Shown in pieces: positions 1,166-15,887 of a DNA stretch of 64,000 nt. How positions within the stretch are numbered: the first letter of the stretch is position 1; each line of letters begins with the position of its first letter. Both the position numbers and the translations under genes were made by a program. This DNA comes from an uncultured Clostridium sp. (lineage in GTDB: Bacteria; Bacillota; Clostridia; Lachnospirales; Lachnospiraceae), in the NCBI GenBank assembly GCA_900543885.1, contig UQTA01000001.1, positions 86,395-150,394 of the forward strand. The letters run 5' to 3'. The notes under the pieces were generated by a model, which was not told the origin of the DNA, made no database searches, and saw only the letters and a program-made list of their open reading frames with translations.

Positions 1166-2434
1166 ATGAAACGACTATCTGCAGGCATCATTTCCGCCTT
1201 GCTTTCCCTTACAATGACATTTACCCCCTGTTCCATATCAGCACTGGCTGCGCAGGAAAACAGCCAGGATTTTTCCCTTTTCTTCAGCGGTCCCGGTGTG
1301 TCAAATATCTCTTCCGGCGACGAATACAGTGAATATCAGTGGGCTCTTCACAATACCGGCCGGCTGCGCCGCACTGAAAAAGTATTAAATATCAAAACCC
1401 TGGACCACATTTATCTCCACTATGGCGAAAACGGCATTGATGATATTGCCCTTCCCCCTTTAGGTCCTGACAACTTTGAAGCGATCAACACCGATGCTGT
1501 AGAAAATATTGATATCAACATTGAAGATGCCTGGAAGACCTACAGTGAAACAGAAAATAAACGGACTGTCACGGTAGCTATTATTGATACCGGTATTGAC
1601 ACTACACACACCGACCTGAAAAACTCCATCTGGGTCAATGAGGACGAGATTCCCGGTGATGGCATTGACAACGATGGAAACGGCTATATAGATGATGTAA
1701 ATGGCTGGAACTTCATTTCTAACAGTAATGAAGTCTGGGGGGAGGAAGAAGACAGCCATGGAACTCACGGTGCCGGCACCATCGCCGCAGCCTGGAATAA
1801 TGGCGGTATCGCAGGCATTGCCGACAACACTCACGTTAAGATCATGGTATTAAAAGCCTTAGGCGGTTCTGACGGAAAAGGTTCCCCGGAAAGCGTCATT
1901 GAAGCCATTAAATACGCAGAAGCCAATGGTGCTGATATATGCAACTTAAGTTTTGGATCCACCAGCACTTCTCCTGAATTTGAAGCAGCAATCCGTGATT
2001 CCAAAATGCTCTTTGTAGTAGCAGCAGGAAATGGAAACCAGTACCAGATCGGTTACGATATCGACAAATCCCCTGTCTATCCTGCAAGCCTTCCTTATGA
2101 CAATGTGATCACCGTAGGAAATCTGCTTTTTAACGGCCACTTAGATGACAGTTCTAACTACGGCACCACAGCGGTAGACCTGGTAGCTCCCGGCACGTAT
2201 ATTTTAAGCACGATCCCTGGTAATTCCTACGCCTACATGAGCGGAACCTCTATGGCTGCTCCCATGGTAACTGGTGCTGCCGCCCTGATCTACTCTGCCA
2301 GAACCGATTTAAGCCTTCAGGACGTAAAAACTGCTATCCTTTCAACTGTACATAAATTAGCCCCATTAAAAGGCAAAACAGCAACCAGTGGTATGCTGGA
2401 TGTTTCTGCCGCTATCAAGTGGGTTAAAAATTAA
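1166..2434 (+). CDS. Secreted subtilisin-like serine peptidase (S8 family)
   Basis: Signal peptide; catalytic triad motifs VAIIDTGID, HGTHGAGTIAA, GTSMAAPMVTGAAAL; RBS aaaaggag upstream. Confidence 0.85.
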   Translation: MKRLSAGIISALLSLTMTFTPCSISALAAQENSQDFSLFFSGPGVSNISSGDEYSEYQWALHNTGRLRRTEKVLNIKTLDHIYLHYGENGIDDIALPPLGPDNFEAINTDAVENIDINIEDAWKTYSETENKRTVTVAIIDTGIDTTHTDLKNSIWVNEDEIPGDGIDNDGNGYIDDVNGWNFISNSNEVWGEEEDSHGTHGAGTIAAAWNNGGIAGIADNTHVKIMVLKALGGSDGKGSPESVIEAIKYAEANGADICNLSFGSTSTSPEFEAAIRDSKMLFVVAAGNGNQYQIGYDIDKSPVYPASLPYDNVITVGNLLFNGHLDDSSNYGTTAVDLVAPGTYILSTIPGNSYAYMSGTSMAAPMVTGAAALIYSARTDLSLQDVKTAILSTVHKLAPLKGKTATSGMLDVSAAIKWVKN

Positions 2435-2447
2435 TGCTGATGACGAA

Positions 2448-3380
2448 TTATAAAGAATCATAACAATTCAGCCCTGCAACTATTGCTGCATAATCTCCGA
2501 TCCGCTCTCCTAAAGCAGCCGGCACGATCTCACATGCCGCCCTGTTCATGGGGAGCGCTTCTTTTTCCAGTTCTTCATACATGGTCTTATCTAAAAGCTG
2601 GTGGCTTCTGGCATAAACAGAACCGACTACGATTTTCTCTGGATTTAAAAGATCCATAAGGATCGCCAGTCCCCGCCCAAAAACAGCACCGCATCTGGCA
2701 TAGACCGCCAAAGCCGTCTCGTCACCAGCCTCTGCCCGCTTGGCCAGTTCTTTTGCGCTTCCTTCTGTTCCAAAGTATCCAGCCAGTTTTGCAATTCCGC
2801 CTCCGGAGCAAAATCCTTCAAAACTTCCTGCTTTTCCATAACCCACCGGTCCTTCTGGTTCCATACGGATATGTCCTGCTTCCCCAGCCATGCCAGTACT
2901 TCCTCTGTATAGTTGTCCGTTTAAGATAAGACCGCAGCCAAGCCCTGTGCCAAAGGTCAGAAAAATCATATTCTTACAGCCTTTTCCAGCACCGAATTTC
3001 CACTCTGCCAAAGCTCCTGCATCCGCATCATTTTCCATTTCTACAGGAATTCCTAGCTTTCTTTTCAGGTATTCCACTACAGGTACCTGATCCCAGCCTG
3101 GAAGATTGGGCGGCGATAAGATCCATTTCCGATCCGTGCTTAAAGGACCGCCACAGGAAATTCCTCCACAAACAACCGTCTTCTCGCCCTTTTTCCCCAT
3201 ATTTAAACCGTGTTTCTTTGCCATCTCCAGCGCTTTGCATGCCAAATTTTCCAGAACTTTTTCCCAGTCCCGTTCTGTCTGCATTTCATAACGTTCCAGG
3301 AAGTTGGTATGGTCATTGTCCACCTGTGCCAGTATCACAGCGCATTTTGTGCCTCCAATATCAAATCCATACAGATACAT
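2448..3380 (-). CDS. ROK/BadF-type sugar kinase (glucokinase or N-acetylglucosamine kinase-like)
   Basis: N-terminal YGFDIGGTK ATPase motif, GTGLGCGLI and GEAGH motifs of the ROK/ASKHA fold; the zinc motif is only partly conserved. Confidence 0.6.
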   Translation of the reverse strand: MYLYGFDIGGTKCAVILAQVDNDHTNFLERYEMQTERDWEKVLENLACKALEMAKKHGLNMGKKGEKTVVCGGISCGGPLSTDRKWILSPPNLPGWDQVPVVEYLKRKLGIPVEMENDADAGALAEWKFGAGKGCKNMIFLTFGTGLGCGLILNGQLYRGSTGMAGEAGHIRMEPEGPVGYGKAGSFEGFCSGGGIAKLAGYFGTEGSAKELAKRAEAGDETALAVYARCGAVFGRGLAILMDLLNPEKIVVGSVYARSHQLLDKTMYEELEKEALPMNRAACEIVPAALGERIGDYAAIVAGLNCYDSL

Positions 3381-3487
3381 ACTGGATCTCCTTTCTACAA
3401 AAACAGCTCCGGCAGACTAAAAACCTGCCGGAGCATATTTCTCTGTTACTGTTCATTCATTGCATGACCAGCAATGGAACAGCCTGA

Positions 3488-4564
3488 TTATTTAACTGCA
3501 TCTAAGTTTAAGATAGAAACGCCAGTGTCGATATAATCAGGAGCTACCTTACCATCATTGATAGCGGTGATTGCTGCATACATACCTTCATAACCCATAA
3601 CGTCTGGATTCTGAGCCATTGTGCAGATCAGAGCGCCGTCTTTGATCAGCTGGATAACTGCATCAGACTTGTCCATACCTGCTGCTACAACGTTATTTCC
3701 ATCTTCTGCAACTGCATTACCAACACCAACACAAGAACCTTCGTTTGCACCAAACAGTGCTACACAACCCTGAGAAATAAAGTTAGCTGCTGCGTCTTTG
3801 GATTTTGCTGCATCGCCATCAGCATACTGAGTTTCAAGGATCTCATAAGCGGTTCCTTCAAATGCAGAACGGAAGCCTTCGTCACGGTCTACAGTAGAAG
3901 TAGTTGCTGCGTTTACAGAAACGATACCGATCTTTCCTTCTTTAACTCCCTTAGCTTCCAGAGCTGCTAAAACCTGCTCGCCAGCGGTCTTTCCTGCTGC
4001 GCGGTTGTCAGTTCCCAGCTGCTGTACACATGGATAATTTGCGAAAGAGTCAACCTGAACGATCTTAACACCAGCCTGATCAGCTTCTTCCAGCGCTGCA
4101 GTAATAGCATCAGGACCATTTGCAGCTACCAGAATAGCGGTTGCGCCATCAGCTACTGCGTTATTTACACACTCGATCTGCTTTGCGTCATCTTTTACAT
4201 CTGGAGCGATCCACTTATAATCACAGCCAAGTTCTTCTGCTGCCTGCTTGCAGCCCTTGTCCATGTTTACCCAGTGCTGATCCATAGAGTCGATAGTAAT
4301 CAGAACTACTTTCTGTCCTTTTCCATCTCCAGGCTTTGCAATGTCTCCTGTTTCCCCAGACAGCATATCATTGCCAGAAGCAGCCTCTTCCTTCTTTTCT
4401 TCCTTGGTGGTTTCTTCAGCCTTGCTTTCTTCCTTCTTCTCCTCTGCAGTGGTTGCTGCCTCTGTAGCTGCTGCAGTTGTTTCCTTTGGAGTAGATGAGC
4501 AGCCTGCTAATAATGCAGAACCAAGTGCTGCCGCCAGAATCATTGAAATCGCTTTTTTCCTCAT
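3488..4564 (-). CDS. Sugar ABC transporter substrate-binding lipoprotein (PBP1, ribose/galactose type) with E/K/T/A-rich low-complexity linker
   Basis: Lipobox LLAGCSS; periplasmic-binding-protein type I core; operon with permease and tandem ATPase. Confidence 0.8.
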   Translation of the reverse strand: MRKKAISMILAAALGSALLAGCSSTPKETTAAATEAATTAEEKKEESKAEETTKEEKKEEAASGNDMLSGETGDIAKPGDGKGQKVVLITIDSMDQHWVNMDKGCKQAAEELGCDYKWIAPDVKDDAKQIECVNNAVADGATAILVAANGPDAITAALEEADQAGVKIVQVDSFANYPCVQQLGTDNRAAGKTAGEQVLAALEAKGVKEGKIGIVSVNAATTSTVDRDEGFRSAFEGTAYEILETQYADGDAAKSKDAAANFISQGCVALFGANEGSCVGVGNAVAEDGNNVVAAGMDKSDAVIQLIKDGALICTMAQNPDVMGYEGMYAAITAINDGKVAPDYIDTGVSILNLDAVK

Positions 4565-4648
4565 AATACTATACCTTTCCTTTCTTTATTGTGAAAGCAT
4601 TTTTATGCTTTACCTTCGTTTTTACTCTTGTTTACCAGTTACTCAAAA

Positions 4649-5665
4649 TTAATTGCTTTTATGCTTCTTGCTCTTGCCTCTGCCGCTTCTTACAACAACA
4701 TCCATAAGAACTGCAACAACTACGATAATACCAATAACGATATTTCTAATTGCAACAGGTGCTCCGGCAAACTGAAGACCATTCTGTAAAACGCCCCAGA
4801 TTGCTGCACCGATCACAGTACCAAGTAAGATACCGGAACCACCCAGTGTAGATACACCGCCGATTACGGAAGCTGCTACTGCATACATTTCATAAGATGT
4901 ACCGGCATCCATAGTACCTGTACCAGTAGATGCACAGGTGATCAGACCTGTTACACAGGCACAGAACGCAGATACAATGTAAACATAAATAACGGTATTA
5001 TCTACATTAACACCGGAAAGTCTAGCCGCGTCAATATTGCTTCCTGTTGCATAAATATGACGGCCCGTTCTGGTACAGCTCATAATGTAGTTAAATACAA
5101 ACCAGATGATCACTGCAATCCAGAAAGCACTGAAAATGCCTAATACTTTGCCGCTGTAGAAGAAAGTACGGAAGCCTTTTGCTGCTTCACCAATGGAATC
5201 TGTATTGTAGTTTCCATTGACGATCTGTGCAATACCTCTTGCAATGGTCATTGTACCTAAGGTTGCGATGAATGGCGGCAGCTTACATTTAGATACCAGG
5301 ATACCATTGATGTATCCAACTAACAGGCAGGCAATCAATGTGATCACCATTGCCACCCATGGATTCATTCCGTGGCACATTAATGTTGCTGAGATCATAC
5401 AGCTCATACCTACTACTGAGCCGATGGAAAGATCGATATTTCCTGTGAATAATACATAGGACTGACCTATGCCGATCAGAAGTGTAGGTGCGATCTGCCG
5501 CAGCAGGTTTGCTGTATTTCTGTAGGTAAAGAAATTCGGATTGATGATTCCAAATACCAGGCATAAAACGATCAGACCGACTGTTACTGTTACAACCTGT
5601 CCCATTCCCCTCTGGGAAAGGAAGCGCCCCAGTACACCGGGCTTTTTATCACTTGAACTGCTCAT
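4649..5665 (-). CDS. Sugar ABC transporter permease (RbsC/MglC-like, about 10 TM)
   Basis: Highly hydrophobic 338-aa protein with the RbsC-family pattern, adjacent to the tandem ABC ATPase. Confidence 0.85.
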   Translation of the reverse strand: MSSSSDKKPGVLGRFLSQRGMGQVVTVTVGLIVLCLVFGIINPNFFTYRNTANLLRQIAPTLLIGIGQSYVLFTGNIDLSIGSVVGMSCMISATLMCHGMNPWVAMVITLIACLLVGYINGILVSKCKLPPFIATLGTMTIARGIAQIVNGNYNTDSIGEAAKGFRTFFYSGKVLGIFSAFWIAVIIWFVFNYIMSCTRTGRHIYATGSNIDAARLSGVNVDNTVIYVYIVSAFCACVTGLITCASTGTGTMDAGTSYEMYAVAASVIGGVSTLGGSGILLGTVIGAAIWGVLQNGLQFAGAPVAIRNIVIGIIVVVAVLMDVVVRSGRGKSKKHKSN

Positions 5666-5701
5666 ATTGTCCCTCCTTGATGAGATTGAATCTAAAACGT
5701 A

Positions 5702-7237
5702 TTATGACGCTGTTTTCTGCTCAAACTGCGTTGCCTTTGTTAAGATCATATCCTGGGTTGCCTCTTCTGCTGAAAATTCTCCGGTAATGCGTCCGTCACA
5801 CATAACAATGATCCGGTCACTCATTCCCATTACCTCCGGCATCTCAGAAGAAACAAACATAACACCGATTCCATTCTGCTTCAACTGATTCATCAGGTTG
5901 TAGATCTCTACCTTTGCAGCTACATCAATACCTCTGGTCGGTTCATCAAAGATAACAACTCTTGAGTTTCTGGCCAGCCACTTGGCAACTACCACTTTCT
6001 GCTGATTTCCTCCTGAAAGACTTCCTGCATCCACCTGGGCATTGGGAAGCTTGATCTTCAGAGCTTTTACAGCATTATCAACCATTTCCTTTTCTTTTTT
6101 CCGGTTAACTGTTCCAACCGGACCTTCACAAAGCATATCCAGATTTGGAAGAGCAATATTGTCTGCTATACTTAGTCTTGTGCACAGACCATCTTTCTTT
6201 CTGTCTTCCGGTGCCAGTACCAGACCTGCTTTAATGGAATCCGCCGGACAATTGATCTTTACTTCTTTTCCGTCAATGAAGATCTCTCCGCTTTCCTTTG
6301 GATCAATGCCGAAGATCGCACGGGTTGTTTCTGTACGTCCTGCACCCATCAGTCCTGCGATACCAACAATCTCACCTTCAAACAGTTCCAGGTTAATATC
6401 CCGTACCATTTTTCCTGCATTCAGATGCTTTACTTCCAGGATCTTCTTTCCCTTTTTGCAGGATACTCTTGGGAATTTCTCTTTGATCTCATGTCCTACC
6501 ATATTTGCAATGATCTCATCCATGCGGTTGATATCATATGGCATCTGAGTGATATATTTTCCATCACGCATAATGATAACACGGTCTACAATATGCTGTA
6601 ATTCCTCTAATCGGTGGGATATGTAGATAATACCGATTCCTTCATCCTTTAACTGATGAATGATCTTAAACAATTCATCAATTTCCTTGGATGTAAGGGC
6701 GGAAGTAGGCTCGTCCATGATCAGCACTTTTGCATTCTGTGAAAGTGCCTTGGCGATTTCTACCATCTGCTGCTTGGAAACAGCCAGTTCACTGACCTGC
6801 GCTTTTGGATCAATATCAATATTCAATTTGTGAAGAATCTCTTTCGTCTCCTGATTCATCCGTTCATTATCCAGACGGCCATTCTTTAACAGCTCCCGTC
6901 CCAGGAAAATATTTTCTGCCACACTTAAGTGGGTACACATATTTAACTCCTGATGAATGATCGCAACGCCTGCCTCTTTGGCTTTATTTGCATCCCACTC
7001 GCCAATTTTATTTCCAAACAGGATAATCTCTCCGTCATCCCTCTGATAGACACCTGAAAGGATCTTCATCAGTGTTGACTTACCAGCACCATTTTCCCCC
7101 AAAAGGGCCAGCACCTCTCCGGCATACAGATCCAGTTTTACATTATCTAGAGCCTTTACACCGGGAAACTCTTTCATAATGCCTGTCATTCGGACCAGTT
7201 CTTTGCCCACAGGCACTTCTGCCTTCTTCTCTCCCAT
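5702..7237 (-). CDS. Sugar ABC transporter ATP-binding protein, tandem ABC domains (RbsA/MglA family)
   Basis: Walker A GENGAGKST, Walker B LIMDEPT, H-loop and second ABC domain present; 511 aa. Confidence 0.9.
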   Translation of the reverse strand: MGEKKAEVPVGKELVRMTGIMKEFPGVKALDNVKLDLYAGEVLALLGENGAGKSTLMKILSGVYQRDDGEIILFGNKIGEWDANKAKEAGVAIIHQELNMCTHLSVAENIFLGRELLKNGRLDNERMNQETKEILHKLNIDIDPKAQVSELAVSKQQMVEIAKALSQNAKVLIMDEPTSALTSKEIDELFKIIHQLKDEGIGIIYISHRLEELQHIVDRVIIMRDGKYITQMPYDINRMDEIIANMVGHEIKEKFPRVSCKKGKKILEVKHLNAGKMVRDINLELFEGEIVGIAGLMGAGRTETTRAIFGIDPKESGEIFIDGKEVKINCPADSIKAGLVLAPEDRKKDGLCTRLSIADNIALPNLDMLCEGPVGTVNRKKEKEMVDNAVKALKIKLPNAQVDAGSLSGGNQQKVVVAKWLARNSRVVIFDEPTRGIDVAAKVEIYNLMNQLKQNGIGVMFVSSEMPEVMGMSDRIIVMCDGRITGEFSAEEATQDMILTKATQFEQKTAS

Positions 7238-7304
7238 ATTTGCTTCCTTTCAAAGATGTTTCGCTTTTATACGGTATCTATATCGTAACAATCCAGCCTT
7301 GCAT

Positions 7305-8600
7305 CTATTTTGTCAGTGATTCGATCCTCAGGCAGCACTCCATCATAGCCCGGTCTGTATGATAAATACATTTCCACTGATTTCCTGTATCATCGATCAC
7401 AGGTGTTCCGTCTGCTAACAGCAGCTGTCTGGACTCGCCAACCTCTGGATTATAGAAATATTTCTTATCAAATTCCCATAATTTGACAAATGTATCCAGA
7501 TACCGCTCATCCTCTGTGGCCTGATAGGAATCCAGAAAGCCTGTCAGAGATTCAAAATTCTGCCACCATTCCTTGTCTGTTACAACGATCCGTCCATCAT
7601 GCATTCCATCTCTGTAAATACCGCCGTGAACATTATCCCAGCCATTTGCCAGTGTGTAATCTGCAAATTTTCTGGTAAATTCTCTTGCAGGCGGAAGTCC
7701 TAATACTTCGTATGCACGATTTAACAGCCAGATCAGTTCAATATTATGTCCATAAGAAGTTGTATCCAGTGGATTTTTATTAGCGCTTTCCGGATCTCTG
7801 TCGTAGTTCCAGGTTCTGCGGATAGAAATTGCAGGCTTTGGCGTAAAATCAATGGAGAACTGATTTCTGCCGCACCAGAAATCATAATCAACCATGTGTT
7901 TCAATACAATATCAATGATTTCCTGCAAAGCTCTCTTATGTACTTCCTTGTGGGTTGCTTCATAAAGAGTAGTATAAGCTTCCATGGTGTGCATGTGGAT
8001 ATCCAGTGATTTCAGATCTCCTCCGTAAACACCGGCACTTTCCAGTGTCCAGTCCTCTTTAAAGTTTTCAAAATAGCCGCCGTAAAATGTATCAGCTGCA
8101 TATTTTTTCAAAGCATCAAAGGTTTTCTCCGCATATTCAATTCCCCGTTCATCACCGGTAGCCATATAATATTCAGCTAATGCATAAATAGCAAATGTCT
8201 GTCCATAAACCAGTTTTCCATTGTCCAGAACATTTCCTTTACGGTCTGTTACCCATGCCCAGCCTGTATTCTTTTTATCCCAGAACTTATCAATGAAGAA
8301 ATCCACGCCCTGTTTTGCTGCCTCTTTGCACTTTTCCTCCCAGCCATAGCGTTTTGCCAGACCATTTCGAAGAAGTGCTGAAAATCCCCAGATCATACGT
8401 GTCTGAGTTACGATCATCTTATCTTCAGGCGTTAATACTGCCAGTTCCTTCATCAGCTTTCCCTTAGAATCAAAGCATACCAAATAACCGCCGTATTCTT
8501 TATCAATTCCGTTTTCAAGCCAAAAAGGAACGCTTTCCTTCATAAAGCCTTCCATTTCTTTTTTCACTATAAGGAGTTTTTCTCTCTTTGACTGTTCCAT
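7305..8600 (-). CDS. N-acylglucosamine 2-epimerase (AGE) superfamily protein (cellobiose 2-epimerase / sugar isomerase-like)
   Basis: 431 aa alpha/alpha-barrel AGE-like sequence; RBS aggagg 8 nt upstream. Confidence 0.7.
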   Translation of the reverse strand: MEQSKREKLLIVKKEMEGFMKESVPFWLENGIDKEYGGYLVCFDSKGKLMKELAVLTPEDKMIVTQTRMIWGFSALLRNGLAKRYGWEEKCKEAAKQGVDFFIDKFWDKKNTGWAWVTDRKGNVLDNGKLVYGQTFAIYALAEYYMATGDERGIEYAEKTFDALKKYAADTFYGGYFENFKEDWTLESAGVYGGDLKSLDIHMHTMEAYTTLYEATHKEVHKRALQEIIDIVLKHMVDYDFWCGRNQFSIDFTPKPAISIRRTWNYDRDPESANKNPLDTTSYGHNIELIWLLNRAYEVLGLPPAREFTRKFADYTLANGWDNVHGGIYRDGMHDGRIVVTDKEWWQNFESLTGFLDSYQATEDERYLDTFVKLWEFDKKYFYNPEVGESRQLLLADGTPVIDDTGNQWKCIYHTDRAMMECCLRIESLTK

Positions 8601-8611
8601 TATCCTTTACC

Positions 8612-8653
8612 CCTCCTGTTCTTCTGTTACAAAAAGTATATCAGAACAGGAGG
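8612..8653 (-). promoter_or_regulatory. Hairpin (11-bp stem) whose 3' arm contains the Shine-Dalgarno of the AGE gene
   Basis: cctcctgttct...agaacaggagg inverted repeat; the aggagg RBS lies within the stem. Confidence 0.35.
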
Positions 8654-8774
8654 AAATAATAAGGGGACATTTTTCAGAATTAGGTAGACATTTTTTAGAT
8701 AATTTTCCGTTGCTGGTCATGCAACGCATAAACAGTAACCATTTTTCATTCATGAAGAATACTGAGGATCTTTA

Positions 8775-10223
8775 TCAGAAAAGTCTGCTGGCGATCCCGT
8801 ACTCCTGAGGTTCCAACAATATCGAAAGTTTTCCATCTTTCACAATACCGATATGATCGGATATATATACACAATCTGTCAGATAACTGGTAAGCATTAA
8901 AATACATACACCTGCTGCCTTTAGTTCCTGTATTCTTTTCAAAATATACGTACGGCAATGCATATCCCCATAGGCAAAAGGCTTCTTGATCACCAGGATC
9001 CGTGGATGAAACAATTTTATTTTATTATAGATCAACCCGTATTTTTCTTTTAAAGAGAGGGACTCGATACTTTTTGTGTCAATAACATCTCCTGCTTCCC
9101 CATAGTATTCACTGCGCACACTGTTTATGTAAGACTGCTTTAATATGCTTTTCTTTAATTTTCGATCCAGCAAAAAGGTAAGATTTTCCAGATAAGACAT
9201 TTCGGAAAACAGAAATGACTGTACCGGATTATCATCCAAAACGATCATTCCCCGATCAAGGCTGCTTTTTACTTTCTTTTCTATTTTTTTGTTTCCGCAG
9301 AAAATATTTCCCTCATAATCTGTAATTTCGCCTGCAAGGATCTCTGTCAGCCGGTCCATGATCTGATTATCAGAATCCAGTAGCGTAATGCATTCTCCTG
9401 ATTTAACGCCAAGGTTCAGATTATGTATATCCGGATCTGTAATATTTTTCAATTCCAGCATATACCCCTTATTTCCTTCCGGCTTAAATACTGCATTTTC
9501 TTTAAAATAGTAAATATATGGTGCTATAGCCTCTTCTCTGAAATCCTTCGGTTCAAATAATTTTTTGATCCTTCCTCTGGAAAACAACGCGATCCTGTCA
9601 CAGATTTTAAACATAATCCAATGATGATAGCAAAAATACAAGGTAGATATCCCCATACTGCGCACTTTCCTTAAAAGCTGATGAAACTGCTCAAGATCCG
9701 CCTGTCCCACCAGTTTTTCCGGATATAGAACTACCAAAAGCTTGCTTCCCATTAAGTAAGCTTTTGCAATCTCTACCATGATCCGTTCCATGGTAGTAAG
9801 TCTTTCTACCCTTTTATTTAAATCCAGTTCCATGGAAAGCTGCTTAAAAACTCTTGCCGCCTGCTCCCGCAAAACCCATTCATTGATCATATGTTTTTTA
9901 AAACCAGGGCGCATCACAAACAAATTATCAGCAATCGACAGATCTGAGATCAGAGAACTTTTCTGATCGATCTGGTAAATACGGTTGGATGTTTCTTCCT
10001 GGTTCAGATAACTGTTCACCAGTTTTCCATCCACATATACTCTTCCGGCATCAATGGGATGATTTTTTTCTGTCAGTTCAATCAGTTCTTTAATTCCTCT
10101 GTCATTAACGGACAGCATTCCCACGATTTCCCCTGTTGTCATGTAAAAACTGAAATTATCCAGATAAACGGCCCCGTCTTTTTTACAGGTCACATTTTCA
10201 AATCGAAGTATTTCCTGTTTCAT
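8775..10223 (-). CDS. Degenerate tandem ABC-ATPase-like protein (pseudo-ATPase paralog of the RbsA/MglA family; Walker A, Walker B and signature motifs lost in both halves)
   Basis: The two-domain ABC fold is recognisable (MVEIAKAY mirrors MVEIAKAL of the neighbouring active ATPase). Walker A is TGEIVGMLSVNDRGIKE and Walker B is VVLYPE; the second half is similarly degenerate. Confidence 0.6.
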   Translation of the reverse strand: MKQEILRFENVTCKKDGAVYLDNFSFYMTTGEIVGMLSVNDRGIKELIELTEKNHPIDAGRVYVDGKLVNSYLNQEETSNRIYQIDQKSSLISDLSIADNLFVMRPGFKKHMINEWVLREQAARVFKQLSMELDLNKRVERLTTMERIMVEIAKAYLMGSKLLVVLYPEKLVGQADLEQFHQLLRKVRSMGISTLYFCYHHWIMFKICDRIALFSRGRIKKLFEPKDFREEAIAPYIYYFKENAVFKPEGNKGYMLELKNITDPDIHNLNLGVKSGECITLLDSDNQIMDRLTEILAGEITDYEGNIFCGNKKIEKKVKSSLDRGMIVLDDNPVQSFLFSEMSYLENLTFLLDRKLKKSILKQSYINSVRSEYYGEAGDVIDTKSIESLSLKEKYGLIYNKIKLFHPRILVIKKPFAYGDMHCRTYILKRIQELKAAGVCILMLTSYLTDCVYISDHIGIVKDGKLSILLEPQEYGIASRLF

Positions 10224-10241
10224 AAGTATCTCCTGATTGGA

Positions 10242-11249
10242 TTAATCTCTCACAATGGGAAGGGTGATCTCTACGTCCGTCCCAACATCCAGCTGACTGT
10301 AGATATAAATACCATACTCTTCTCCAAATAACAGCTTGATACGATTATTTACATTTTTCACCGCGATTCCGCCCCGCTTGCCATTTTCCTCTTCTTCCTC
10401 TTCTTCCAGCCTTAATGCCCTCAGTTTTTCGTTCATAGCCCTAACCTGGCCTTTTTCCATTCCTACCCCATCATCAGAAATCATAATGATCAAATGTTTA
10501 TCTGTCATGGTGATCTTAATGTCCAGACAACCTTTCCCAATTTTCTGCTCCAGACCATGGTAAATAGAATTTTCCACAATAGGCTGCAATGTTAATTTTG
10601 GCAGCTGACACATAAGAGCTTCTTCATCTTCACAGTCATAACGGATCCGCAGATCTAACTTGCTTCCAAAACGGAACTGCTGAATATAATAATAATTTTC
10701 CACATTAGCCAGTTCTTCTTCCAATGTGACAAGATTGTTTACCTGAGAAATAGTATATCGGAAATAAGTCGCTAATGCCTCCGTCATTTCCGCAATAGAA
10801 TCAACTCCCGCGATCAAAGCTTCTGCCCGGATGCCTTCCAGTGTGTTATAAAGAAAATGTGGATTAATCTGATTCTGTAAAGCCAGATATTCTGACTTTT
10901 TCTTGGATACAGTAACTAATTCACTTTTATCCAATAATGCATAAAACCGACGCAGCATATTTTTCTCTTCTTCATTCAGCAAATATGGCATATGATAAAT
11001 ATCTTCATAGCTGTCTCCTCTTGCAAAAGCAGCTTTTATGCGGCTGTTTACTTTTAAAGGCCGGTAGATCAGCCGATATCCTCCGTATAGCAAAATGACA
11101 TAAAAAAGCCCAAAAAGTCCGATAACCCATTTCAATCCTGCTATTTTCCATTCCTGAAAGAACAGGATAAACAGCAGGCTTATATGAAAGATAAAAAAGA
11201 TCGCTGCAAACCAGCGTATACGGTCAAAAAGATAGCTCTCTTTATTCAT
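10242..11249 (-). CDS. Sensor histidine kinase, LytS/YesM-type His_kinase + HATPase, two TM helices and no extracytoplasmic sensor domain
   Basis: H-box NPHFLYNTL; HATPase_c C-terminal; start MNKESYLF overlaps the response-regulator stop (atga); only about 100 aa precede the kinase core. Confidence 0.8.
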   Translation of the reverse strand: MNKESYLFDRIRWFAAIFFIFHISLLFILFFQEWKIAGLKWVIGLFGLFYVILLYGGYRLIYRPLKVNSRIKAAFARGDSYEDIYHMPYLLNEEEKNMLRRFYALLDKSELVTVSKKKSEYLALQNQINPHFLYNTLEGIRAEALIAGVDSIAEMTEALATYFRYTISQVNNLVTLEEELANVENYYYIQQFRFGSKLDLRIRYDCEDEEALMCQLPKLTLQPIVENSIYHGLEQKIGKGCLDIKITMTDKHLIIMISDDGVGMEKGQVRAMNEKLRALRLEEEEEEENGKRGGIAVKNVNNRIKLLFGEEYGIYIYSQLDVGTDVEITLPIVRD

Positions 11250-12865
11250 GAATAGATCTTCCTGTATTCTCCTGGCTTCAGCCCGGTGTATTTTACAAAG
11301 CATTTTGTGAAATATTTCACATCTGAATAACCCACTTTTTCGCAGATCACGTTCATTCCTTCGTTTCCTGAAACCAGCATCTTTTGGGCTGCATCCATAC
11401 GTACTGACTGCAAGAATTCCAGAAAAGTGGCTCCTGTTTCTTTCTTAAAAAGTGTGCTGAAATATCCGGGAGCAAAACCTGCCATTTCACTTACTTCTTC
11501 CAGGGTAAGGGAACGGTTATAATTTTCTTCTATATATTGTTTTGCCTGCCGGATGGGACGGTTATCCTCTGCTTTCTTGGCTTCCGAAGCTTTTTGCAAA
11601 GATCTTCCCAATGTGCCGCCTAAAAGCCGGAACAGCTCTTCAATATCTGCACATTCTCCTGCATCTTTGCTGAATTTTTCCACAAACTTAGCTTCTCCGT
11701 CTACATGGATTCCCTTACTCTTCATACAAAACAGATAATGGTTGCAAGCTTCTTTGGACATCTGCAAAATCTCATATCCAGTAATACCCGGATAATTTTT
11801 CAATGTATCCCGTAGATTTTCAATGGTTCTTCTTACATCCACTACATTTAAAGCTTCTACTGCCCGTTCCATTTCTTTGTTAAAACGATAAAATGCTTCG
11901 CTGTTTATAAAATCCGATGTTTTTCGCTGCTGCGTTTCATCCATCTCCAGCATACGTCCAGTTCCCAGAAGGAGCCTCTGCTTTATCATAAAAACAGCAT
12001 CCAGAAAAGACTCTCTGATATATTCTGATGTTTTTACCATATTTCCCATTCCTATGGTAACGCTCATTCCTTTTAAGATACTTTCCTGGGTTTTCAGCTC
12101 ATCTAACATCTGACGCACATTTTTTCGCACATTCCTGCTTTCTTCTTCCTCATAATTCATCAAAAGATAAAATGTAGAACACTCTGCATAAATCTCGAAA
12201 TCATAACAAACTGGATCCAGATACTGAAATGCCAGATTGGCAGCTTTATCTGCCAAAAAAGAAAGACAGTTGTCATTGTTGCTTACATGGTCAAATTTGA
12301 TCGCAGCAAACTGAAAGATTCCCTCCTGAAAATGAAAATGGTACTGACTGTTCAGTTCTCTCAGTCCAATGACAGTCTCTCTCTCCCGGTCCCCATAGAT
12401 CATTCGTGAAACAAAGCTGGTACGCAGTTTTCCTGCATCATTTTTCAAAGCAAGTCTGACTCTCTCTTCAAAATTTAACTGTTCATTCTTCTCTTTATAA
12501 ATCTCTGTGATCCTTTGTAACGTATCCTTAAGTTCCTCTTTTTTGATCGGTTTTAAAAGATAATCTCTTACACCATAGCGGATCGCTGTCTGGGCATATT
12601 CAAAATGGCGATAACCGCTGATGATAATGATCTCCGTATCCGGCAGTTTTTCCTTTACTTTCTGAATCAGTTCCATACCATCGATCCCAGGCATTCTTAT
12701 ATCTGTGATCACGATCTCCGGTTTATAAATTTCTGCCTGTTCTAAGGCTTCAAGACCGTTAGACGCAGTTGCTGCCACAGTCAATCCCATTTCCTCCCAG
12801 TTGATCAGTTTTATGATCAGCTGGCATATCTTCTCTTCATCATCTGCGATCAATACCTTCAGCAT
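11246..12865 (-). CDS. Response regulator, REC + AraC-type HTH (YesN-like)
   Basis: N-terminal MLKVLIADDE...DIRMPGIDG receiver; C-terminal AraC HTH (YFSTLFKKETG...). Confidence 0.85.
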   Translation of the reverse strand: MLKVLIADDEEKICQLIIKLINWEEMGLTVAATASNGLEALEQAEIYKPEIVITDIRMPGIDGMELIQKVKEKLPDTEIIIISGYRHFEYAQTAIRYGVRDYLLKPIKKEELKDTLQRITEIYKEKNEQLNFEERVRLALKNDAGKLRTSFVSRMIYGDRERETVIGLRELNSQYHFHFQEGIFQFAAIKFDHVSNNDNCLSFLADKAANLAFQYLDPVCYDFEIYAECSTFYLLMNYEEEESRNVRKNVRQMLDELKTQESILKGMSVTIGMGNMVKTSEYIRESFLDAVFMIKQRLLLGTGRMLEMDETQQRKTSDFINSEAFYRFNKEMERAVEALNVVDVRRTIENLRDTLKNYPGITGYEILQMSKEACNHYLFCMKSKGIHVDGEAKFVEKFSKDAGECADIEELFRLLGGTLGRSLQKASEAKKAEDNRPIRQAKQYIEENYNRSLTLEEVSEMAGFAPGYFSTLFKKETGATFLEFLQSVRMDAAQKMLVSGNEGMNVICEKVGYSDVKYFTKCFVKYTGLKPGEYRKIYS

Positions 12866-12915
12866 GTTTCCCTCCTATACTGTCATATATATGCTCTCGG
12901 AATCCTTTTTCTCCC

Positions 12916-13080
12916 CTAGTATAATCCGCGATAATTACCGATCCCTTACACGCAGGATAAATTTTCATGTGCAAGGAAGCTGAATGAGGCGATGCCGGTA
13001 GCATCGTCGATTGAAGCTGACGCGGCAGATGGAAATTTAGACAAGTGAAAGGGGCGGATAATTATTGTGGATTATACTAG
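12916..13080. repeat. About 165 bp element bounded by 22-bp imperfect inverted repeats containing TATAAT boxes
   Basis: ctagtataatccgcgataatta (12916-12937) versus taattattgtggattatactag (13059-13080); GC-rich core with the palindrome gatgccggtagcatc. Confidence 0.4.
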
Positions 13081-13114
13081 TGTATCATCTCAATGAGATT
13101 TGCGCTAGATGCAG

Positions 13115-13157
13115 GGGTAAAAAAACGCGTCCCCCGAAGGGACGCGTTTTCAACTGA
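13115..13157. terminator. Bidirectional rho-independent terminator (A-run, GC hairpin, T-run)
   Basis: aaaaaacgcgtcccccgaagggacgcgtttt; sits downstream of the minus-strand decarboxylase operon. Confidence 0.6.
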
Positions 13158-13262
13158 TGTGATCGTATTTTGACCTCTTTGATACCGGGTTCCAAGATCA
13201 AAAATCCTCTTGCAAGCAAGCTTGCATCGGATTTCAGACCTTTTGACCCTGGTATCATAAAA

Positions 13263-14675
13263 TTATACTGGATAAGCCTTATTCTCTTTATCTGCTACAG
13301 CAGCATCTACTTTCTTCTGCTGAGCTTCTCTGTACTGGAAGAACTCCTTGGCAACATTTGGGAACAGAGCGTAGCTTAATACGTCCTCATCCTGCTGTTT
13401 CCACTGAGCGCATTCCTTTTCAAACTGAGGCATCTGAGGTGCGATCAGATCTGCAGGTCTGCAGGTGATCGGAGTCTCATCGCCGATGATTTTCTTCTGT
13501 ACTTCTGGGTTAAATGGCTTAACAGTCTGACCAAATTCACCAAGCATGATCTTCTTGGATTCCTTTGGAACCATCTTGTAGCGCTCACCCATTAATACGT
13601 TAAGAACTGCCTGAGTACCAACGATCTGGGAAGAAGGTGTAACCAGAGGCGGCTCACCAAAGTCTTTACGAACTCTTGGGATTTCCTCCAGAACCTGCTG
13701 ATACTTGTCTTCCTGACCAGCTTCCTTTAACTGGCTAACCAGGTTGGAAAGCATACCGCCAGGTACCTGATACTGCAGAGTCTTGATATTTACGCCTAAT
13801 ACCTTTGGATTCAACAGACCGGTCTTTAATGCTTCTTCACGGATTGGCTGGAAGTGAGCAGCGATCTCTCCTAACAGCTTCTGATCATAACCGGTATCAT
13901 ATGGAGTACCGCGGAAGGTCTCTACCATAACTTCTGTAGCTGGCTGGCTGGTTCCCAGTGCCAGTGGAGACATAGCACAGTCAATAATATCGCAGCCTGC
14001 TTCTACAGCCTTCATATAGGTCATGGAAGCAACACCGGAAGTATAATGGGTGTGCAGATCGATTGGAAGTGTGGTTCCTTCCTTTAAAGCCTTAACTAAT
14101 TCAGTAGCCTTGTATGGAGTTAACAGACCTGCCATATCCTTGATACACAGAGAATCAGCTCCCATGTCTTCAATTCTCTTAGCAATGTCTCTCCAGTAAT
14201 CCAGAGTATAAGCATCACCTAAGGTGTAGCACAGTGCGATCTGAGCATGTCCTTTTTCCTTCTTTGTTGCCTTTACAGCAGTCTCCAGGTTACGGATATC
14301 GTTTAAGCAGTCGAAAATACGAATGATATCAATACCATTTGCAATAGATTTCTGTACGAAATATTCAACTACATCATCTGCATAGTGATTATATCCCAGG
14401 ATATTCTGTCCACGGAACAGCATCTGCAGCTTTGTGTTCTTAAATCCATCTCTTAACTTTCTTAAGCGCATCCATGGATCTTCTTTTAAGAAACGCAGGC
14501 AGGCATCAAATGTAGCGCCTCCCCAGCACTCTACTGCATGGTAGCCAACCTTATCCATCTTGTCTACGATAGGCAGCATCTGCTCTGTAGTCATTCTGGT
14601 AGCAAGTAAAGACTGATGTGCATCACGAAGGACGGTTTCCACGATCTTTACTGGCTTCTTCTCTATCTCTGCCAT
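13263..14675 (-). CDS. Biotin-dependent carboxyltransferase 5S subunit (oxaloacetate decarboxylase alpha / pyruvate carboxylase subunit B-like), lacking a C-terminal biotinyl domain
   Basis: VKIVETVLRDAHQSL..., HxH metal motif region, 470 aa (too short to include a biotin carrier domain). Confidence 0.85.
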   Translation of the reverse strand: MAEIEKKPVKIVETVLRDAHQSLLATRMTTEQMLPIVDKMDKVGYHAVECWGGATFDACLRFLKEDPWMRLRKLRDGFKNTKLQMLFRGQNILGYNHYADDVVEYFVQKSIANGIDIIRIFDCLNDIRNLETAVKATKKEKGHAQIALCYTLGDAYTLDYWRDIAKRIEDMGADSLCIKDMAGLLTPYKATELVKALKEGTTLPIDLHTHYTSGVASMTYMKAVEAGCDIIDCAMSPLALGTSQPATEVMVETFRGTPYDTGYDQKLLGEIAAHFQPIREEALKTGLLNPKVLGVNIKTLQYQVPGGMLSNLVSQLKEAGQEDKYQQVLEEIPRVRKDFGEPPLVTPSSQIVGTQAVLNVLMGERYKMVPKESKKIMLGEFGQTVKPFNPEVQKKIIGDETPITCRPADLIAPQMPQFEKECAQWKQQDEDVLSYALFPNVAKEFFQYREAQQKKVDAAVADKENKAYPV

Positions 14676-14741
14676 AGTTTAAATCCTCCTTAATAGGCAC
14701 CCGGTCTTATTCCAAAGACCAGGTGCAGTAAATGTTGGTTT

Positions 14742-15887
14742 TTATACACCGAAAATTGCCATAAAGGTACCGGCTGCTACTGCAGTACCGATAACACCTG
14801 CAACGTTTGGTCCCATTGCATGCATCAGCAGGAAGTTGGTAGGATCATATTCAGCACCAACCTTCTGGGATACACGGGCTGCCATAGGAACTGCGGATAC
14901 ACCTGCAGAACCGATCAGTGGGTTGATCTTTCCGCCAGTTACCTTGCATAAGATCTTTCCTAAGAGAACGCCGCCGATGGTTCCTACGCAGAATGCTACC
15001 AGACCTAAAATAACGATCTTGATAGTAGTTGCGTTTAAGAATGCCTCTGCACTGGTGGTTGCACCTACAGAAGTACCAAGCAGGATAACAACAATATACA
15101 TCATTGCATTGGAAGCGGTCTCCTGCAGCTGTTTTACAACGCCGCACTCACGGAACAGGTTACCTAACATCAGCATACCTACTAACGGAGCAGTAGATGG
15201 CAGGATCAGGCACACAACGATAGTAACGATGATCGGGAATAAGATCTTCTCCAGCTTGGATACGGAACGAAGCTGGGACATTTTGATCTTACGCTCCTTA
15301 TCAGTAGTAAGAAGCTTCATAAATGGCGGCTGGATGATCGGAACCAGAGCCATATAAGAGTAAGCTGCAACAGCGATTGGTCCCATGATCTGGGTCTGTC
15401 CTAACTTACTGCAAAGGAACAGGGAAGTAGGACCATCTGCACCACCGATAATGGAGATACAAGCTGCCTCTTTTCCTGAGAATCCTAACAGGATTGCGAA
15501 GAAATATGCAGAGTAAATACCTAACTGAGCTGCTGCACCCATCAGGAAGCTGATCGGGTTTGCGATCAGCGGACCAAAGTCTGTCATCGCACCTACGCCC
15601 ATGAAGATCAGGGACGGAAGGATACTCCACTCGTCCAGAGTGAAGAAGTAATACAGCAGACCGCCTACGCCGTTGGAAGTCTGTTCCGGAGAATACATGA
15701 TATCCGGATAGATATTTACAAGCAGCATACCAAATGCGATCGGGATCAGCAGCAGCGGCTCAAATCCCTTAGCGATCGCCAGGTATAAGAAGACCAGTGC
15801 TACACCGATCATAATGTAGTTTCCTGCAGTCAGATGAAAGAACGCCATCTGGCCAAGCAGGTTTGATACCAAATTGCCAAAATCCAT
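14742..15887 (-). CDS. Na+-translocating decarboxylase beta subunit (OadB/MmdB/GcdB family)
   Basis: 381-aa polytopic membrane protein with the OadB family pattern. Confidence 0.9.
   Translation of the reverse strand: MDFGNLVSNLLGQMAFFHLTAGNYIMIGVALVFLYLAIAKGFEPLLLIPIAFGMLLVNIYPDIMYSPEQTSNGVGGLLYYFFTLDEWSILPSLIFMGVGAMTDFGPLIANPISFLMGAAAQLGIYSAYFFAILLGFSGKEAACISIIGGADGPTSLFLCSKLGQTQIMGPIAVAAYSYMALVPIIQPPFMKLLTTDKERKIKMSQLRSVSKLEKILFPIIVTIVVCLILPSTAPLVGMLMLGNLFRECGVVKQLQETASNAMMYIVVILLGTSVGATTSAEAFLNATTIKIVILGLVAFCVGTIGGVLLGKILCKVTGGKINPLIGSAGVSAVPMAARVSQKVGAEYDPTNFLLMHAMGPNVAGVIGTAVAAGTFMAIFGV

Follow-up and report, generated by a model that had tools for sequence, protein, structure and literature searches.

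A degenerate tandem ABC ATPase as putative third component of a YesM/YesN-like two-component system beside a sugar importer

A 64,000-nucleotide stretch of the genome of an uncultured Clostridium sp. of the Lachnospiraceae (assembly GCA_900543885.1, contig UQTA01000001.1, positions 86,395 to 150,394 of the forward strand; here called the window) encodes a 482-residue protein which, judged from its sequence, is a non-catalytic paralogue of the tandem ATP-binding cassette (ABC) ATPases of CUT2 sugar transporters. We named this pseudo-ATPase pABC, and refer to its gene and the genes of a response regulator and a histidine kinase as the trio. The protein is maintained by purifying selection, belongs to a large family, and is encoded as the third gene of a two-component operon in relatives of the window. 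We rate the trio as a candidate for accessory-dependent, transporter-coupled two-component signalling, in which the new element would be a dead ABC ATPase acting as the third component. Our inference is that the kinase, which has no input of its own, receives its signal through pABC.

The pseudo-ATPase and its family

Residues 3-467 of pABC align with residues 12-485 of the neighbouring active ATPase at 19% identity (BLASTP, E = 8e-26). Pfam ABC_tran, the profile proposed as a check in a preliminary description of the locus, matched the N-terminal half only (2e-11). The best NCBIfam matches were AraG, XylG and RbsA; pABC scored approximately 120 bits with the CUT2 ATPase equivalogs, whose cut-offs lie at 586-850 (top match AraG, 120.6 bits, cut-off 689). 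The two-domain fold proposed in that description is borne out by the alignment to the active paralogue and by an AlphaFold model built on 62 family sequences (pLDDT 88, pTM 0.82). The best Foldseek matches of the model in the PDB were proteins with tandem nucleotide-binding domains (NBDs), the Mcr A2 component and the fused DppD/OppD of M. tuberculosis (TM-score 0.69-0.74); a solved CUT2 tandem ATPase structure was not found by sequence. The motifs of the two paralogues compare as follows.

Walker A, NBD1: GENGAGKST in the active ATPase, SVNDRGIKE in pABC
Walker B, NBD1: LIMDEPT in the active ATPase, LVVLYPE in pABC
Signature, NBD1: LAVSKQQ in the active ATPase, itself non-canonical, LTTMERI in pABC
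Walker A, NBD2: GLMGAGRTE in the active ATPase, DSDNQIMDR in pABC
Walker B, NBD2: VIFDEPT in the active ATPase, LVIKKPF in pABC
Signature, NBD2: LSGGNQQK in the active ATPase, LSLKEKYG in pABC
Post-signature helix: MVEIAKA in the active ATPase, kept as MVEIAKA in pABC

The alignment upheld the reported loss of Walker A and Walker B in both halves and the reported retention of the MVEIAKA helix. The LSGGQ signatures, also said to be lost, are absent from both halves, but in NBD1 even the active paralogue has a non-canonical signature. In NBD1, pABC retains the H-loop His and the Q-loop Gln. None of 80 genome-encoded family members carries an intact Walker A in either half, and the NBD2 motifs are degenerate in 80/80; the Asp of the NBD1 Walker B is kept by many members, the pair D-E by only a few.

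A word-indexed search retrieved approximately 100 clusters at 90% identity, spanning 99% to 27% identity to pABC (1069 to 185 bits); the next matches, sharply set off from these, were canonical RbsA-like proteins, none above 144 bits. When 1.84 billion representatives were searched exhaustively with a profile, at least 150 clusters at 50% identity emerged, all of those listed at 323 bits or more as against approximately 120-145 bits for canonical ATPases, so that the family must exceed 150 clusters. Of these 150 best representatives nearly all were 440-510 residues long (range 329-556), and no fusion of a pABC gene to a kinase gene, which would be Rosetta-stone evidence, was seen.

The family has invariant or nearly invariant motifs of its own: YLDN, DNxFVxRxGFKKY, FERxxxELxKA, NHH, GEC and LDxDN, as well as FLFxxMSYxENLTFLLDRKL, SVRxEY and QPFAxGDM. 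The strongest is FLFxxMSYxENLTFLLDRKL, located in the helical subdomain of the second half, and DNxFVxRxGFKKY is its first-half counterpart. New polar motifs, also conserved, occupy former nucleotide sites, LDxDN standing where the NBD2 Walker A would be and FER where the NBD1 signature would be. Conservation within pABC is highest in the S-x-x-[DE]-N-h segments after the Q-loop, which we take to line, as in ABC importers, the groove for the coupling helix.

Compared with two relatives at 88-89% identity, pABC has a dN/dS of 0.056-0.060, similar in range to the kinase (0.037) and the regulator (0.06-0.07). Its dN of 0.06 equals the rate of the kinase and regulator, whereas the transporter proteins are at 0.015-0.026, and pABC evolves 3-4 times faster than the true ATPase. 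That pABC is a decaying pseudogene or an annotation artefact might be suspected from the lost catalytic motifs and from the Pfam match to one half only. We rejected this explanation, whose probability is negligible: the reading frame is intact at 470-500 residues in more than 150 divergent clusters, dN/dS is near 0.06, and the family has its own invariant motifs and a confident fold prediction. The earlier view of pABC as a pseudo-ATPase is thereby supported.

Genomic context, kinase, regulator and predicted operator

The genes of the locus form an uninterrupted row on the minus strand, in the order regulator, kinase, pABC, epimerase, ATPase, permease, binding protein and ROK kinase. The features are listed in the direction of transcription.

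13119..13150, minus strand: intrinsic terminator closing the unrelated gene upstream; the sequence itself shows a hairpin, ACGCGTCCC-TTCG-GGGACGCGT, with a T-run behind it
11246..12865, minus strand: response regulator, 539 residues, YesN-like, with REC, a middle part of ~300 residues and an AraC-type HTH
10242..11249, minus strand: histidine kinase, 335 residues, His_kinase (PF06580) and HATPase_c
8775..10223, minus strand: pABC, 482 residues, tandem-NBD paralogue of CUT2 (RbsA/MglA-type) ATPases
8657..8700, minus strand: predicted operator of the regulator, 44 nt, between pABC and the transporter operon
8635..8640, minus strand: -10 box TATACT of the presumed regulator-activated promoter
7305..8600, minus strand: AGE-family epimerase/isomerase, first gene of the regulated operon (Pfam GlcNAc_2-epim, 4.3e-41)
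5702..7237, minus strand: active CUT2 tandem ABC ATPase (Pfam ABC_tran, 9.3e-55, two stretches)
4649..5665, minus strand: CUT2 permease (Pfam BPD_transp_2, 4.9e-42)
3488..4564, minus strand: lipoprotein-type sugar-binding protein (Pfam Peripla_BP_4, 7.3e-47)
2448..3380, minus strand: ROK-family sugar kinase, last gene of the operon (Pfam ROK, 1.8e-54)

These Pfam matches agree with the complete sugar ABC transporter and AGE epimerase named in the preliminary description. The active ATPase has intact Walker A, Walker B and signature motifs and matches XylG/RbsA-like NCBIfam models at 585-589 bits. The permease, encoded by a single gene, presumably forms a homodimer. An N-terminal signal and a lipobox-like LLAGC are apparent in the translation of the binding protein. 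NCBIfam matches of the epimerase are well under their cut-offs, and its gene is confined to the closest relatives (synteny in L002-L005 and L034).

The hairpin and T-run at the end of the upstream unrelated gene, which were not among the results of a consensus scan, indicate that the trio begins a separate transcription unit. The regulator stop and the kinase start overlap in ATGA; the kinase most likely starts at M19 of its open reading frame (11249). Between kinase and pABC, which share a reading frame with one stop codon between them, the spacer measures 18 nt instead of the 19 bp first given and contains an AGGAGA Shine-Dalgarno sequence.

A scan of one genome per species gave 107 relatives, of which 80 loci were kept. 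They come from Lachnospiraceae, Oscillospiraceae, Tissierellaceae, Geosporobacter, Anaerovirgula, Peptococcaceae and one Oceanispirochaeta metagenome-assembled genome (MAG), and the carriers include common human-gut Lachnospiraceae and Oscillospiraceae such as Enterocloster, Lacrimispora, Hungatella and Caproiciproducens. The order regulator, kinase, pABC on one strand was found in all 74 loci with enough upstream sequence. This neighbourhood survey, which had been suggested as a test of co-occurrence with YesM/YesN-like pairs, agrees with the earlier placement of pABC as third gene of the operon. In most loci kinase and pABC are -11 to +33 nt apart, a 4-nt overlap being frequent, and the layout recurs in L081, a distant representative that was looked up separately. 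At a single locus, L069 of a Peptococcaceae MAG, kinase and pABC are 1.2 kb apart, split by an opposite-strand gene (6840-7844); its 334-residue product resembles, by eye, uroporphyrinogen-decarboxylase/methyltransferase proteins.

A CUT2 operon (ATPase, permease and binding protein) adjoins the trio in 65 of 69 informative loci, directly downstream in 59 and upstream in 6; the contigs of the other 11 of the 80 loci were too short to judge. No other type of transporter was found next to the trio in the 69 loci, and ROK genes accompany the module in most loci. Where a ROK gene follows pABC (L008, L009, L011, L013, L018-L021 and others; at about 13000-15700), the binding protein has ~600-670 residues, about twice the usual length, which suggests an extra domain or a duplicated binding module. 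At L017 (C. asparagiforme) and L022, neither a CUT2 transporter nor the operator described below was present in the 8-kb flanks. The neighbours there are an FGGY kinase, transketolase genes and a PRD/EIIA regulator at L017, and a LacI-PfkB fusion and an M20 peptidase at L022.

In the regulator, Pfam identified Response_reg (1.7e-27), HTH_18 (1.1e-18) and HTH_AraC (1.4e-17), and the phospho-acceptor residues are intact (D55 and K105, read from the translation). The kinase matched His_kinase (1.7e-25) and HATPase_c (1.5e-08) and nothing else. Hydropathy and conservation indicate a first transmembrane helix (TM1, ~7-34), an outer loop of 4-6 residues, a second helix (TM2, ~39-60), a degenerate HAMP-like linker, a DHp domain with H131 and a CA domain. 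The columns of the H-box (NPHFLYN), N-box and G-box are invariant in 38 homologues; none of these 38 kinases had a HAMP or Cache domain in Pfam at E up to 10, and kinase homologues are almost all 333-358 residues long. The kinase was previously described as having no sensory domain. It does lack an extracytoplasmic or PAS/Cache sensor, but two TM helices and the linker remain.

The sequence of the TM helices is not conserved among homologues. P64 and G78 of the linker are invariant in the family and fall on the HAMP proline and glycine, the AF2 secondary structure of the linker is helix, connector, helix, and in hhalign the kinase is colinear with canonical YesM-like kinases across TM2-HAMP-DHp-CA. 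The HAMP origin of the linker is proposed because of this profile-profile colinearity, its sole support. At the level of sequence the kinase looks like a YesM protein with its sensor deleted, and the pair of kinase and regulator looks functional, yet without an input domain of its own.

On two metagenome contigs (L082, 5893-8025; L083, 2-2203) a pABC 89-90% identical to that of the window follows a kinase with a conventional N-terminus, with HAMP recognized by Pfam in both and dCache_1 in L083 only. These N-termini are joined exactly at the H-box to a core ~85-90% identical to the window's. Between the two kinases the N-termini are only ~25% identical and the cores almost the same; the L082 contig is covered 4x and has IS66 genes in the vicinity. 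Both kinases are probably assembly chimeras at the conserved H-box, the alternative being recurrent recombination.

Two direct repeats ~21 nt apart (AAAAAATGTCTACC and GAAAAATGTCCCC, 8696-8663) stand in the 174 nt that separate pABC from the epimerase gene. A TATACT -10 box lies 22 nt downstream of the second repeat, and TATAAT or TATACT stands at the same distance in related loci. The architecture of repeats and -10 box can also be aligned in loci whose pABC is only 41-60% identical. The refined position-weight matrix (consensus ATCaAAAGATTGTCCCCCTTAATCGAAAGAATGTCCCCTTTTTG) scored 25-62 bits in 68 of the 80 loci compared with at most 2.7 bits in shuffled loci, having been trained on the same loci that it scores. 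The window operator scored 49.7 bits, with a core (8663-8692) that occurs only once in the 64 kb. The operator lies 50-100 nt upstream of the first gene of the transporter operon and is still there when that operon is displaced or divergent. Its position and repeat structure point to binding by the AraC-type regulator, which would activate the uptake operon through this site.

Within the window, a scan of 7100-13400 for terminators and promoters gave counts at chance level and no terminator in the stretch from pABC to the operator; Rfam revealed no RNA family in 2300-13400. Read-through from the trio may give basal transporter expression in the window and in the closest relatives, which have no terminator there. 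At other loci (L012, L016, L024, L030-L033, L040, L063-L065 and L075) a GC-rich hairpin with a T-run lies within the first 40-120 nt downstream of pABC, ahead of the operator, so that the trio is a separate transcript there. An inverted repeat (CCTCCTGTTC and GAACAGGAGG; window 8612-8653, minus strand) brackets the -10 box, and its 3' arm extends over the ribosome-binding site from which the epimerase is translated; L002 and L003 conserve the repeat, L004 and L005 do not. In read-through transcripts of the trio this repeat could mask the ribosome-binding site, and transcripts begun at the regulated promoter would lack the 5' arm.

Possible routes of signal input

Docking of pABC on the transporter and relay of the transporter's state, as proposed in the preliminary description, is plausible, with weak support from covariation. 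We favour, at a rough probability of 0.45, a sharpened version of that proposal, a route in which pABC sits under the permease dimer as a non-cycling receptor that signals to the kinase. pABC would replace the real ATPase under the CUT2 permease dimer, giving a non-transporting receptor version of the transporter. When the sugar-loaded binding protein docks, the permease and pABC would change conformation; the change would reach the membrane-anchored kinase via its TM helices, the HAMP-like linker and contact with pABC, and the resulting change in the kinase would switch phosphorylation of the regulator. We favour this receptor route because the kinase retains a membrane anchor and HAMP, because the groove-lining segments of pABC are retained, because the module occurs only with CUT2 transporters, because external sugar needs detecting, and because residual covariation points that way. 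The proposition in its most novel form, that a dead tandem NBD turns an importer into a dedicated, non-cycling transmembrane receptor relaying binding-protein docking to a sensor-deleted kinase, is tentative, and we hold it at somewhat less than even odds.

Several observations weigh against the receptor route. Distance matrices were compared over 56 complete loci, and the correlations are mirror-tree statistics, inflated by shared phylogeny and treated here as leads: pABC correlated most closely with the kinase (r = 0.92) and the regulator (0.90), and at a level well below these with the permease (0.70) and the binding protein (0.69). The six-protein partial correlation between pABC and permease was -0.08, and pABC against permease given the ATPase gave r = 0.05. 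In 4 of the 69 informative loci there was neither a CUT2 transporter within 4.5 kb nor an operator in the flanks. For a receptor complex to form, permease and binding protein would have to be present in basal amounts, and the complex would be in competition with the real ATPase. Any physical interaction of pABC with the permease or the kinase is conjectural, and the operator matrix is circular in its training, as stated above. A few deep-branching members retain G-K-S in the P-loop and D-E in the Walker B of NBD1; part of the family may, to judge by these motifs, have residual nucleotide binding.

Other correlations bear on the path of the signal. The pABC matrix correlated with that of the ATPase at r = 0.80, and the partial correlation between pABC and kinase was 0.41. 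Given the regulator (partial Mantel), pABC retained correlations of 0.52 with the binding protein, 0.37 with the ATPase and 0.34 with the permease, whereas the kinase core against the permease fell to -0.04. Given the kinase core, the TM segment correlated with the transporter proteins at 0.42-0.47 (permease 0.42) and with pABC at 0.47, the HAMP-like linker with pABC at 0.40 and with the permease at 0.08. This residual covariation, suggestive only, fits a chain from the transporter to the TM segment of the kinase and, with pABC, to the linker; it also fits a pABC whose specificity follows the sugar.

In a different reading, the main rival, pABC binds the kinase only, at the HAMP-like linker or the DHp/CA part, and senses an intracellular ligand, the transporter being a mere target. 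The ligand could be the imported sugar or its phosphate, bound at the remodelled NBD interface. The tightest covariation of pABC being with the kinase and not the permease, and the values for the linker just given, would be expected here, and so would translational coupling or overlap of the two genes in most loci, the four genomes with a trio and no adjacent transporter, and the new polar motifs LDxDN and FER at former nucleotide-site positions. The residual divergence of pABC tracks the binding protein best, as it should if both follow ligand specificity. Such a cytoplasmic sensor would leave the family-wide retention of two TM helices and a HAMP-like transducer unexplained, as well as the exclusive association with CUT2 transporters in the 69 informative loci, and its ligand site on pABC is hypothetical; we consider it rather unlikely. 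There is still less to recommend a transport brake, in which pABC would compete with the real ATPase for the permease and throttle uptake, its place in the regulatory operon serving coordinated expression only. The full tandem-NBD architecture, the groove-lining segments and the neighbouring CUT2 transporter would suit this role. It would, however, leave the sensor-less kinase without any input and the invariant order and overlap of the kinase and pABC genes unexplained, and the rate of pABC is that of kinase and regulator, not that of the transporter; we regard it as improbable.

Even less probable is that pABC still binds or hydrolyses ATP with non-canonical residues, either energising the transporter or reporting the energy state of the cell. 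NBD1 has kept the glycine at the sixth position of the P-loop, the H-loop His and, in many members, the Q-loop Gln, and the deep-branching members with GK[ST] and D-E would fit; their partial motifs suggest a stepwise loss of catalysis. The window protein, on the other hand, has no P-loop Lys, no Walker B Asp or Glu and neither signature, NBD2 is wholly degenerate in every member, and an intact ATPase is encoded in the same cluster. We consider activity of this kind highly unlikely, and retain the non-cycling receptor as the favoured reading.

Relation to known systems and further features of the locus

pABC resembles the CUT2 tandem ATPases RbsA, MglA, XylG and AraG in length, in its two NBDs, in homology over the full length, and in the post-signature helix and the S-x-x-[DE]-N segments. 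It differs from them in the family-wide loss of the catalytic motifs, showing none of the sequence hallmarks of catalysis and staying below the equivalog cut-offs, and in being encoded with a kinase and a regulator, not with a permease. The kinase and regulator share with YesM/YesN a PF06580 and HATPase_c kinase and a regulator with REC and AraC-type HTH, but the kinase has neither the extracytoplasmic (Cache-type) sensor between TM1 and TM2 nor a recognisable HAMP.

In the PhoR-PhoU-PstSCAB and MalK-MalT systems the state of an ABC importer is reported to transcription from the cytoplasmic face, through or beside the ATPase. It is the active ATPase itself that is used there (PstB, MalK), with an unrelated adaptor, PhoU, for phosphate, and we know of no dead NBD paralogue involved in either. 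In UhpABC, a transport-impaired paralogue of the transporter, UhpC, acts as sensor on behalf of a kinase-regulator pair that switches on the real transporter. UhpC is a membrane paralogue of the MFS type that binds the external substrate itself, whereas pABC is a soluble NBD paralogue.

In Bce modules (BceRS-BceAB) the intramembrane-sensing kinase is thought to depend on an adjacent ABC system whose operon the regulator induces (PMC7828314, PMC10314905). The kinase of the trio is similar in having two TM helices, an outer loop too short to sense and a HAMP-like linker. In Bce modules the BceA ATPase is active, the permease is of the FtsX type and has a large outer domain, the regulator is OmpR-type, the kinase is of another family, and antimicrobial peptides are sensed; the trio locus combines a PF06580 kinase and an AraC-type regulator with a dedicated, dead paralogue of the ATPase, next to a sugar importer that depends on a binding protein. 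In XylFII-LytS-YesN and CuaD-CuaSR a paralogue of a transporter binding protein has sensing as its dedicated task and works with a PF06580 kinase and an AraC regulator (PMC8050422, PMC10384115). Both share with the trio this type of kinase and regulator at a sugar ABC transporter. Their recycled part is an extracellular binding protein and their kinase has an outer or multi-TM input; in the trio it is the cytoplasmic ATPase that has been recycled, and the kinase lacks any outer domain. None of 74 loci contained a sensor binding-protein gene inside the trio operon, the sole binding-protein gene being that of the transporter operon. The trio locus is similar to both classes in its operating logic and belongs to neither, since a BceAB-type permease, an OmpR regulator and an in-operon gene for a sensor binding protein are absent. 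A further system at hand (PMC10128022) has a hybrid kinase with its own HAMP and no pseudo-ATPase. Next to the trio of two Oscillospiraceae/Clostridiales loci (L076, 3161-7274; L077, 10119-14165) lies a set of binding protein, kinase (~494 residues) and regulator, so that both three-component designs coexist in one gene neighbourhood.

Neither Pfam nor NCBIfam contains a model specific to pABC, and full-text searches on dead ABC ATPases, on YesM/YesN with ABC transporters and on CUT2 with two-component systems found no description of it, which is no proof of absence; the statement that the arrangement is undescribed stands to this extent. In current databases pABC is named 'ATP-binding cassette domain-containing protein' or 'ribose transport system ATP-binding protein', labels that inflate transporter counts and hide a regulatory system. 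A part of a transporter seems to have been recycled into a signalling protein. The inputs of most two-component kinases are unknown, and sensor-less kinases are a long-standing puzzle; pABC, as a large unannotated family, is the obvious candidate input device for one class of them. If the proposal is true, the ATPase subunit would join binding proteins and permeases as a source of transporter-derived sensors, and a signalling receptor would have been built from transporter parts. pABC would then be the first ABC ATPase pseudo-enzyme to have a definite role assigned to it in two-component signalling and would offer a natural ATP-independent NBD pair for studying conformational transmission in ABC transporters. 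The conserved operator would provide a ready reporter for experiments.

Two blocks of the locus differ in composition. The trio has a G+C content of 38-40% compared with 43-48% in the transporter genes (window 8001-13000 vs 2001-8000), and its synonymous divergence from L002 and L003 is 1.0-1.8, that of the transporter genes only 0.3-0.7. The contrast reflects either different histories of the blocks through recombination or very different codon bias.

The genes flanking the module, judged by eye from their translations, look unrelated to it. A secreted subtilisin-like protease (window 1166-2434, plus strand) is encoded convergently with the ROK gene at a 13-nt gap, and a carboxyltransferase subunit resembling those of oxaloacetate decarboxylase and pyruvate carboxylase is encoded upstream of the trio (window 13263-14675, minus strand).

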